DNA from: Escherichia phage Pinarejo
Sequence record: PP925831.1
Reading direction: 5' to 3' (one strand)
DNA: 64,000 nt
This document shows, in pieces, positions 38,336-39,219 of the stretch; position 1 is the first letter of the stretch; each line of letters begins with the position of its first letter. A program made the translations under genes and the position numbers. Below the pieces are notes generated by a model that did not search any database, was not told the DNA's origin, and saw only the letters and a list, made by a program, of their open reading frames with translations.

Positions 38336-38520
38336 TATTCACCTTTAGAAATTTTATCCATAACAATAGCAATTAAACCAATTAAAAATGCTACTACAAG
38401 TGAAAACACATTTTCTGCTGTAGTCAATAATCCACATATAAATCCAACAAACATTGAAAAACTAAAAGCGGAAGCAGAAATTGCAATAGCAACATTTCGA
38501 ATTAATTCACAACGTTTCAT
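38335..38520 (-). CDS. Small membrane protein, 61 aa
   Basis: Track ORF, almost entirely hydrophobic. Confidence 0.45.
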   Translation of the reverse strand: MKRCELIRNVAIAISASAFSFSMFVGFICGLLTTAENVFSLVVAFLIGLIAIVMDKISKGE

Positions 38521-38548
38521 TTTATTCTCCTCAGTAGTAGATAGGGTA

Positions 38549-38578
38549 ATAGTATCACTACCCTATCTAAAAGTAAAC
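38549..38578 (-). promoter_or_regulatory. T4-type early promoter embedded in a palindrome
   Basis: atagta...(18)...gtaaac; -10 region enclosed by gataggg...ccctatc inverted repeat. Confidence 0.55.
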
Positions 38579-38824
38579 TTATTTTTTACGAAAAATTGAT
38601 TTATTTTCTGCTGCCCATTTTTCAATAACTGCAGCAGGACCAGTAACAACAATTTTATCACCGTAATCTTCTGCGGCGAGTTGACCGAAATTATCTAATG
38701 CATCACGAAGAACTCCATGAGGCATTTCACCCATTTTATCTTTCTTGCCAGTGTAAATAAACTCAACTTTTACATCAGCAGTTTCAGCAATAAATTCTTG
38801 GTAAGTTTTCATTTTGATTTCCAT
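38579..38824 (-). CDS. Capsid internal protein-like (capsid targeting sequence MKTYQEFIAE)
   Basis: MEIKMKTYQEFIAETADV...; true start probably the second Met at about 38812. Confidence 0.6.
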   Translation of the reverse strand: MEIKMKTYQEFIAETADVKVEFIYTGKKDKMGEMPHGVLRDALDNFGQLAAEDYGDKIVVTGPAAVIEKWAAENKSIFRKK

Positions 38825-38846
38825 TTGGTTTTGTTTTGATAGGGTA

Positions 38847-38876
38847 ATAGTATCACAACTAAAACCCTATGTAAAC
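38847..38876 (-). promoter_or_regulatory. T4-type early promoter embedded in a palindrome
   Basis: atagta...(18)...gtaaac followed by aactttgtgaaattattttaaat; atagggt...accctat inverted repeat. Confidence 0.55.
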
Positions 38877-38888
38877 AACTTTGTGAAA

Positions 38889-39146
38889 TTATTTTAAATC
38901 TTCTAATCGTTTCTTCATCTTAGAACCATTTTTAGCAATTTCTCCTGCATCGGAGCATAATGCTAAAAGTGCTTTAACTTTAGTTTGGTCTCCTTTAAAA
39001 GATGAAGGATCGACCGCAGCAGCAAGTTCTTTAATACGAGAGAAAAGACGCTCAGCTTCAGCTAAAGCCATTCCAAGCTTTACTTCCATACCGTGGGAAG
39101 ATTCAGTGATAGTAGTTTTTGTAGCAAACTCTTTGAAAGTTTTCAT
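38889..39146 (-). CDS. Capsid internal protein-like (targeting-sequence-like MKTFKEFATK)
   Basis: 85 aa, Ala/Lys-rich, N-terminus resembles the MKTYQEFIAE targeting sequence. Confidence 0.5.
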   Translation of the reverse strand: MKTFKEFATKTTITESSHGMEVKLGMALAEAERLFSRIKELAAAVDPSSFKGDQTKVKALLALCSDAGEIAKNGSKMKKRLEDLK

Positions 39147-39177
39147 TTTTATTTTCCTAATTAATTTTGATGAGGTA

Positions 39178-39207
39178 ATAGTATCACTACCTCATCAGTA
39201 TGTAAAC
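39178..39207 (-). promoter_or_regulatory. T4-type early promoter embedded in a palindrome
   Basis: atagta...(18)...gtaaac; gatgagg...cctcatc inverted repeat; downstream 29-nt string identical to the copy at 38871-38899. Confidence 0.55.
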
Positions 39208-39219
39208 AACTTTGTGAAA

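Follow-up and report, generated by a model that had tools for sequence, protein, structure and literature searches.

How are two small neighbouring genes to be understood when each encodes a product with a capsid-targeting-like N-terminus and each is preceded by an early promoter whose -10 element lies inside an inverted repeat? Such a pair lies between genes 57B and trna.4 of Escherichia phage Pinarejo (PP925831.1); the window, by which we mean the whole stretch of DNA analysed, comprises 64,000 nt and is a Tequatrovirus genome. A first interpretation, made from the letters without database searches (hereafter, the sequence-only reading), had proposed that these are genes for packaged internal proteins, carried on modules that resemble promoter-early-stem-loop (PeSL) cassettes and possibly directed against host defences. 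We conclude, with a probability of roughly 0.85 for the explanation as a whole, that this is the ipI-type hyperplastic internal-protein (IP) locus of a T-even phage, in the T6 arrangement 57B, ip5, ip6, trna.4. The system has been described previously, and finding it in Pinarejo is a correct re-recognition and not a discovery. The earlier observation is thus partly confirmed, with the strand and one element corrected, and its interpretation is supported but belongs to established knowledge.

Both open reading frames (ORFs) that the sequence-only reading had singled out are present, on the minus strand (Table 1), and their identity as internal-protein genes is borne out by matches to PHROG 3499 and PHROG 8111 and by the names Ip5 and Ip6, which are carried by the GenBank records of JK08, RB51, RB14, VR26, and T6 (Ip5 is so annotated in RB51, RB14, and T6; Ip6 in T6, VR26, and others). 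The T6 record remarks of Ip5 that it "replaces ipI", and UniProt Q38378 is the Ip5 of phage RB70. We found that the two genes are encoded in a hypervariable IP locus, 57B-trna.4, the other such locus being e-denV. Its conserved left boundary is 57B, which is present in all related loci and has the same position as T4 57B; its conserved right boundary is trna.4, and in T4 the interval between them holds ipI as its sole gene. T6 (GenBank MH550421) shares with Pinarejo the order 57B-Ip5-Ip6-trna.4, the gene lengths, and intergenic promoter and palindrome sequences that are the same or nearly so; the two are set apart by point differences only, for instance TATCTCATC in T6 versus TACCTCATC in Pinarejo in the 3' arm of the ip5 promoter. 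Related arrangements are those of RB51 and RB14 (Ip5 only), T2 (Ip5 plus a 102-aa IP), and T4 (ipI). Moreover, positions 37600-39700 are 99.6-100% identical over their full length to the 40 best-matching Tequatrovirus genomes (855 phage records match overall), and the hosts of these 40 phages are Escherichia, Shigella, Yersinia, and Salmonella.

The N-termini of both products carry the features known from T4 internal proteins. Ip5 begins with the propeptide MKTFKEFATKTTITE, in which MKTFKEF matches T4 IPI at 7/7 residues, and the Ip6 propeptide MKTYQEFIAE equals the capsid-targeting sequence of T4 IPIII and IPII at 10/10 residues. As in IPIII, position 4 is aromatic and position 7 is Phe in both. 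The first 10 residues of IPIII are enough for packaging, with residues 4 and 7 controlling targeting and residues 8 and 10 controlling processing, and the prohead protease gp21 cleaves after L/I-x-E (T4 head assembly review, PMC9026906). Such a gp21-type motif ends both propeptides (ITE15 before S in Ip5, IAE10 before T in Ip6), so that at the sequence level the cleavage site expected after the targeting sequence is in place; taken with their position in an IP locus, both products show every sequence-level feature of a T4-type internal protein. Cutting after E15 is predicted to leave a mature Ip5* of 70 aa with an isoelectric point (pI) of 9.2, and cutting after E10 a mature Ip6* of 67 aa with a predicted pI of 6.5. 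An in-frame ATG at 38824, upstream of ip6, is probably not a start codon. Diverged homologues of Ip5 have another, shorter propeptide (MKTYQTFMTE or MQTYQTFITE) fused to the same SSHGMEVKLG... sequence; nucleotide homology between ip5 and the diverged locus begins 35 nt into the ORF, and protein homology begins exactly at SSHG. The joining of an alternative propeptide at this same residue is independent comparative support for the predicted Ip5 cut site.

All three intergenic promoters lie on the minus strand and read GTTTAC-N18-TACTAT, with an extended-10 TG two bases before the -10 element. Counted from TTTACA or TTTACT, the TACTAT element follows after 17 nt, which makes these T4-type early promoters; all three agree with the PST/T4 early promoter consensus TTTACW-N17-TAYWAT (Comeau 2014). 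Transcription of ip5 is predicted to start near A39171. Over the 111 bases compared, the region upstream of ip5 is identical to that upstream of T4 ipI except for two synonymous differences in the first codons. Two of the promoters, those of ip5 and ip6, are preceded by exact copies of a 33-nt repeat, GATTTAAAATAATTTCACAAAGTTGTTTACATA, which is nested in a 71-nt repeat of 86% identity; the last 57B codons (DDLK and stop) fall within copy 1, and the A/T-rich block preceding the promoter is AAAATAATTTCACAAAG. A near-identical 29-nt block had been described as a leader following each promoter. It does occur twice, within the 33-nt exact repeat, but with every gene here encoded on the minus strand, it precedes the -10 element and is not a leader. 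The trna.4 promoter is without this block. A second correction concerns the assignment of all three palindromes to internal-protein genes: the first of them (gataggg/ccctatc) belongs to the promoter of trna.4, the gene for a 61-aa predicted membrane protein.

The inverted repeats themselves are present as had been observed, each around TACTAT, and they exceed chance expectation. Folded as DNA, the three elements reach z = -3.0 to -3.7 (ip5, -8.1 kcal/mol, z = -3.0; ip6, -9.5 kcal/mol, z = -3.7; trna.4, z = -3.6), compared with z = -0.2 to +1.5 for four other early promoters of the window. The ip6-promoter palindrome extends imperfectly to 38831-38878, and a 19-nt core, GTGATACTATTACCCTATC, is common to the trna.4 and ip6 promoters. 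In a window-wide scan that gave 28 promoter-like matches, only one other (near 23482) has a stem of at least 7 bp. Therefore, the hairpins are not a general property of the early promoters of this genome. The element near 23482 lies on the minus strand (about 23440-23490), where a palindrome CAAGATTA / TAATCTTG, extendable to about 13 bp, surrounds a -10 element upstream of a 34-aa ORF (23320-23424; PHROG 3515, function unassigned).

For comparison, we assembled 36 loci with 57B relatives from viral contigs, together with T4, T2, T6, and RB51. A perfect stem of at least 6 bp is found in 56% of 36 distinct locus promoters versus 10% of mononucleotide shuffles, and one of at least 8 bp in 33% versus 0.5%. 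The T4 ipIII, ipII, and pre-denV promoters have palindromes straddling the -10 element as well. It is doubtful that the palindrome has no function of its own, having arisen through chance mirroring, in the spacer, of a conserved promoter segment after the -10 element (CCTATCAA) or through inheritance from one ancestral cassette. The 3' arm does overlap a segment common to many T4 early promoters, many of the elements are closely related, which inflates apparent conservation, and degenerate and chimeric stems are tolerated. However, at least eight different arm sequences occur across the locus, in several registers relative to the -10 element (for example AGGGCTAT, TAGGACTA, AGGTCTATAG, GATGGGATAA, and GTGTAGG), and other early promoters of the same genome have the downstream segment without a complement in the spacer. 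In a covariation analysis that applied one fixed register to 35 sequences, 67.5% of cells were paired, as against 31-35% when the partner was slid by 1-2 nt and 46-61% when it was slid by 3 nt. Changes on both sides were seen in 7 of the 11 stem pairs, and the covariation score beat all but 3 of 500 shuffles; because the sequences are related, which inflates apparent conservation, we regard this result as supportive and not conclusive. Together, these results support that the inverted repeat around the -10 element is a conserved structural feature with co-varying arms.

The same elements fold as RNA, at about -20 kcal/mol and z = -3.7 to -4.5, the ip5 element forming a 13-bp hairpin with z = -4.5. 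A role at the RNA level would concern transcripts that read through from 57B or from a late promoter in gene 1 and carry the full hairpin just past the preceding stop codon; there it could block decay from the 3' end, direct processing, or weakly terminate transcription, and so insulate each cassette. Transcripts from a cassette's own promoter would start in or after the 3' arm and be without the hairpin. We consider such a role somewhat unlikely, even though two of the elements form 13-14-bp stems using G-U pairs, arm sequences vary between lineages while pairing is kept, and the stem-loops of RB49-type PeSLs have been shown to be effective terminators (Arbiol 2010). A scan for intrinsic terminators at the hairpins returned 0 terminator-like sites, no T-run (U-run in the transcript) follows the stem, and the promoter between the two IP genes of T2 has a mismatched, chimeric stem. 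Folding, moreover, does not differ significantly between the sense and antisense strands (23 versus 12 elements, p = 0.10), so that RNA and DNA roles are not separable on this basis.

The variability expected of an IP locus is evident across the comparison set. In 35 related loci, the number of ORFs with a capsid-targeting sequence between 57B and trna.4 ranges from 0 (L008 and L009) to 5 (L020); stripped of their propeptides, the products fall into 13 families, and one mature family can be found with several propeptide variants (MKTYQEF, MKTFKEF, and MKTYKEF). Several junctions show how this content changes. A metagenomic locus with ip6 only (L035) equals the Pinarejo locus minus 331 bp, with 99.9% identity from the repeat onward; 331 bp is the spacing of the 33-nt repeats and thus the length of the ip5 cassette, that of ip6 being 298 bp. 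RB51 (Ip5 only) and T4 (ipI only) have a chimeric promoter before trna.4, the 5' half of which is of the Pinarejo ip6-promoter type (GTTTACATAGGGTTTTAG(T/C)TGTGATACTATTACCCTATC) and the 3' half of the Pinarejo trna.4 type (AACTACTGAGGAGAATAAAATG), with the switch within the shared core. In T2, between Ip5 and the 102-aa internal protein, an ip6-type 5' arm is joined to an ip5-type 3' arm and leader. Pinarejo and T4 are homologous from 57B to a point 35 nt into the propeptide codons, the promoter included; the homology then breaks and resumes in the -10 core before trna.4. The gene replacement at conserved boundaries and the PeSL-like module shuffling that the sequence-only reading had anticipated are therefore both seen, and both are already in the literature, where these elements figure as PeSL analogues.

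Insertions, deletions, and replacements in L035, RB51, T4, and T2 are thus flanked by promoter elements, with chimeras at the junctions, as in PeSL-bordered regions. We found that the crossovers fall in three short shared blocks: the 33-nt upstream block comprising the A/T-rich segment and the -35 element, the 14-19-nt -10 core GTGATACTATTACC(CTATC), and the start of the propeptide codons (20-35 nt). General recombination in T4 needs patches of less than 50 bp (Arbiol 2010), so that blocks of these lengths could serve it. One locus (L017) keeps the order ip5-ip6-trna.4 at only about 75% DNA identity, behind two extra ip genes (about 680-1270 nt downstream of 57B), which argues that the Ip5-Ip6 pair is old and not a recent assembly. 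In another (L019), about 700-800 nt downstream of 57B and upstream of the third ip gene, a promoter element has its -10/3'-arm segment GATACTATTACCTCATCAA tandemly duplicated; this looks like a footprint of slippage or unequal crossover.

Work by Repoila and colleagues on the T-even internal-protein loci reportedly described a conserved upstream motif of about 70 bp. As cited in two later papers (Arbiol 2010; Comeau 2014), Repoila et al. 1994 (EMBO J; Repoila, Tetart, Bouet, Krisch) found "PeSL-like sequences" at the two T-even IP loci. As summarised in these papers, the loci have variable ORF sets that share an N-terminal leader and PeSL-like promoter elements; the Pinarejo locus has the same, and no substantive difference between them was seen on this basis. 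The IP-locus elements are considered analogues, not homologues, of the RB49 PeSLs (Arbiol 2010; Comeau 2014); they are built on T4 early promoters, and their stem-loops are weaker and more AT-rich (Arbiol 2010). Five internal-protein differences separate PST from T4 (Comeau 2014). With the PeSLs of RB49/phi1 (Arbiol 2010) and of PST/T4 and nt-1/KVP40 (Comeau 2014), the Pinarejo elements share a repeated early promoter, an A/T-rich block, and a stem-loop flanking variable small genes, and in the hyperplastic regions of those phages, too, chimeric elements mark crossovers. Measured against the strict definition of a PeSL, Pinarejo has the strong early promoter with its A/T-rich upstream region and is without the G-rich terminating stem-loop upstream of the promoter, as its stem straddles the -10 element and the terminator scan found 0 sites. 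In RB49, by contrast, a G-rich stem-loop (GGGG...CCCC) precedes the promoter and has been shown to terminate transcription, whereas the Pinarejo stem spans spacer, -10 element, and discriminator, is A/T-richer, and has no T-run.

These junctions also bear on whether the palindrome is a recombination signal at the DNA level. A hairpin or cruciform at the unwound -10 element would then be bound or cleaved by a factor specific for such structures (T4 endonuclease VII, for example), and crossovers would be focused at cassette borders in a manner akin to integron attC sites. Chimeric junctions do switch in the loop or -10 core, one mini-circle crossover has been mapped inside a PeSL loop, and a DNA-binding protein that targets the stem-loop has been the subject of speculation (both Arbiol 2010); in addition, the palindromes are confined to variable IP loci, including the T4 ipII, ipIII, and pre-denV promoters. 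We nevertheless hold this to be quite improbable. With 33 nt and 14-19 nt, the shared blocks suffice for ordinary homologous recombination in T4, other crossovers fall outside the palindrome, in the -35 block or the propeptide codons, and no recombinase is encoded nearby. A site-specific recombinase was considered as a candidate and rejected, none being encoded between gene 1 and the tRNA genes.

The mature parts of Ip5 and Ip6 belong to families that are well represented among T-even phages. Mature Ip5 was found in 494 phage records, among them RB3, RB14, RB51, and T2 (about 99-100% identity), and at about 54% identity in the RB69 group; mature Ip6 was found in 230 records, including T6 (98.5%), and its identity across genera is 76-100%. 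A large protein search returned T-even phage proteins only, in 11 clusters for Ip6 and 5 for Ip5. AlphaFold models Ip6 as a small alpha/beta domain of ferredoxin-like type (pLDDT 82), and a search of a viral fold library with it gave the protein itself, one other with 30% identity, and weak matches; Ip5 is modelled as a simple two-helix hairpin (pLDDT 71). By single-linkage BLAST, Ip6 groups with 68-78-aa internal proteins of more distant relatives (loci L005, L010, L014, L016, L021-L023, L026, and L029) that share the motif G-P-x-x-(I/V)-(E/D)-x-W and are encoded by the first or second ip gene after 57B. Ip6 may accordingly be one member of a broader superfamily of small internal proteins. 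T4 IPI*, Ip2, and Ip3 resemble Ip5 and Ip6 in their N-terminal targeting propeptide, L/I-x-E motif, and small size and, for ipI, in occupying the same locus. They are unlike them in their mature parts: mature Ip5 and Ip6 have no sequence similarity to mature IPI, IPII, or IPIII, and searches of PDB sequences with Ip5 and Ip6 gave no meaningful match, so neither a sequence nor a fold relationship to IPI*, Ip2, and Ip3 was found.

We propose that each ip gene is a self-contained cassette, in which a T4-type early promoter, read by the host sigma-70 RNA polymerase, and a Shine-Dalgarno site would drive synthesis of a small cargo domain with an unrelated capsid-targeting propeptide at its N-terminus. 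By analogy with T4 IPI and IPIII, the propeptide would dock the protein onto the scaffolding core of the prohead, gp21 would cleave after IAE10 in Ip6 and ITE15 in Ip5, and the mature proteins of about 7.5 kDa would remain in the head and be injected with the DNA, most likely to neutralise a host defence. The gain, loss, and swapping of cassettes would proceed by the general homologous recombination of the phage at the three shared blocks, a step that the comparison of relatives partly shows.

Several observations weigh against this picture. A literature search yielded no virion proteomics that names Ip5 or Ip6 or their predicted cleavage, the pertinent returns being general proteomics of T4-like phages. 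The large protein search found no cellular relatives, and no homologues outside T-even phages, for either protein; neither has a Pfam domain, and a fold search with Ip6 gave generic ferredoxin-like matches only, none of them informative. No late promoter (TATAAATA) lies within the locus, so that protein supply at prohead assembly is something we infer. Many relatives have no promoter at some of these junctions, the start of the first ip gene overlapping the stop codon of 57B (ATGA) or one ip gene directly adjoining the next; the promoter cassette is therefore common but not obligatory. T2 carries a broken (mismatched) palindrome, which indicates that an intact stem is dispensable for viability. 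Finally, when ip4-10 were screened against GmrSD variants in a 2025 study, no inhibition was reproducible (the ip5 and ip6 used there may differ in sequence from those of Pinarejo), and in the same study T2 (with Ip5) and T6 (with Ip5 and Ip6) were restricted by GmrSD-ECOR21 and GmrSD-ECOR17, so that neither enzyme is the target. As to late expression, the nearest upstream match to the late-promoter consensus TATAAATA lies at 40261-40268 on the minus strand, within gene 1 and upstream of 57A, 57B, ip5, and ip6, and late read-through from there could supply internal proteins during prohead assembly.

What the injected proteins may do is best approached through their T4 counterparts. Ip1, Ip2, and Ip3 each inhibit one distinct GmrSD type IV restriction enzyme (2025 study and earlier literature), and IPIII is active in the cytoplasm without its targeting sequence. 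An anti-defence role for Ip5 and Ip6, which the sequence-only reading had put forward, is thus a reasonable analogy. That they are instead generic head-filling or DNA-associated proteins, involved in charge balance, packaging, or ejection and variable through weak constraint, seems unlikely to us. In the T4 head, lysines of the internal proteins are reported to be in contact with the phosphates of the DNA, mature Ip5 is predicted to be basic, L008 and L009 do without an ip gene at this locus, and the GmrSD result for ip4-10 fits such a role. On the other hand, all three properly tested T4 internal proteins are specific inhibitors of type IV restriction, mature Ip6 is predicted to be near neutral, the conservation within families (Ip6, 76-100% between genera; Ip5, 54% in the RB69 group) points to a specific fold and partner, and the locus adjoins the anti-CBASS gene acb1. 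The position of the ip cassettes directly downstream of the Acb1 gene makes the stretch look like a small anti-defence island. Many records label 57B "RNA ligase" or "hypothetical" despite its match to Acb1.

Table 1. Features of the Pinarejo internal-protein locus and its surroundings (positions in the 64,000-nt window)
Feature	Positions	Strand	Details
ip5	38889-39146	-	85 aa; PHROG 3499 "internal head protein", E = 1e-49
ip6	38579-38812	-	77 aa; PHROG 8111 "internal virion protein", E = 1e-52
ip5 early promoter	39178-39207	-	-35 GTTTAC 39207-39202 (TTTACA 39206-39201), 17-nt spacer, TG, -10 TACTAT 39183-39178
ip6 early promoter	38847-38876	-	-35 GTTTAC 38876-38871; -10 TACTAT 38852-38847
trna.4 early promoter	38549-38578	-	-35 GTTTAC 38578-38573; -10 TACTAT 38554-38549
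ip5-promoter palindrome	39168-39177 / 39188-39197		TGATGAGGTA / TACCTCATCA; 10-bp stem, 10-nt loop holding the -10
ip6-promoter palindrome	38839-38845 / 38864-38870		ATAGGGT / ACCCTAT; 7-bp stem, 18-nt loop holding the -10
trna.4-promoter palindrome	38538-38548 / 38559-38569		TAGATAGGGTA / TACCCTATCTA; 11-bp stem, 10-nt loop holding the -10
33-nt exact repeat, copy 1	39199-39231	-	57B end and stop, A/T-rich block, -35
33-nt exact repeat, copy 2	38868-38900	-	last ip5 codons (EDLK and stop), A/T-rich block, -35 of ip6 promoter
57B	39220-39678	-	Acb1 anti-CBASS phosphodiesterase; Pfam PF23474 Acb1, E = 2.7e-60
trna.4	38335-38520	-	61-aa predicted membrane protein; PHROG 1692; identical to T4 Trna.4
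gene 1	39905-40669	-	
57A	39675-39905	-	
trna.3	37937-38335	-	
trna.2	37647-37934	-	
11 tRNA genes	36535-37552	-	

From gene 1 through the tRNA block, every gene is on the minus strand. At the other T-even IP locus, T4 has ipIII and ipII between e and denV, whereas Pinarejo has no IP genes there. In the gap that remains in Pinarejo (31058-31116, minus strand; e, 31117-31611; denV, 30641-31057), a single promoter resembles the T4 e-to-ipIII promoter, with two mismatches, through the -10 palindrome, after which the denV leader follows at once, as if a cassette had been deleted here; OE5505, a close relative, retains a 157-aa IP gene between e and denV. Elsewhere on the minus strand, an ORF of 157 aa (35309-35782) has a capsid-targeting-like start, MKSYTQFLNEAVLNE followed by A, with an L-x-E motif. 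It is preceded by TATAAATA at 35821-35828 and a terminator-like hairpin, matches PHROG 2280 (function unassigned), and has a predicted mature part that is basic (pI 9.6). Judged by these features, the ORF may be an additional internal-protein gene, expressed late and not annotated as such.

Current understanding of these loci is left unchanged, and the comparison of junctions re-illustrates a published model with more genomes. A more tentative proposal, which we hold to be possible though short of an even chance, is that Ip5, Ip6, or both are injected inhibitors of a defence outside those screened, either another modification-dependent nuclease or a non-restriction system, and that, separately, the -10 palindrome is an insulator or recombination signal specific to internal-protein cassettes. 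If true, the first would be a new specificity among anti-defence proteins and the second a new role for hairpins within promoters, each at a locus that is otherwise known. As it stands, the locus is a textbook case of the swappable set of injected proteins of T-even phages beside the anti-defence gene acb1, and the internal-protein content of a phage helps to predict its host range and thereby bears on the choice of Tequatrovirus phages for therapy.

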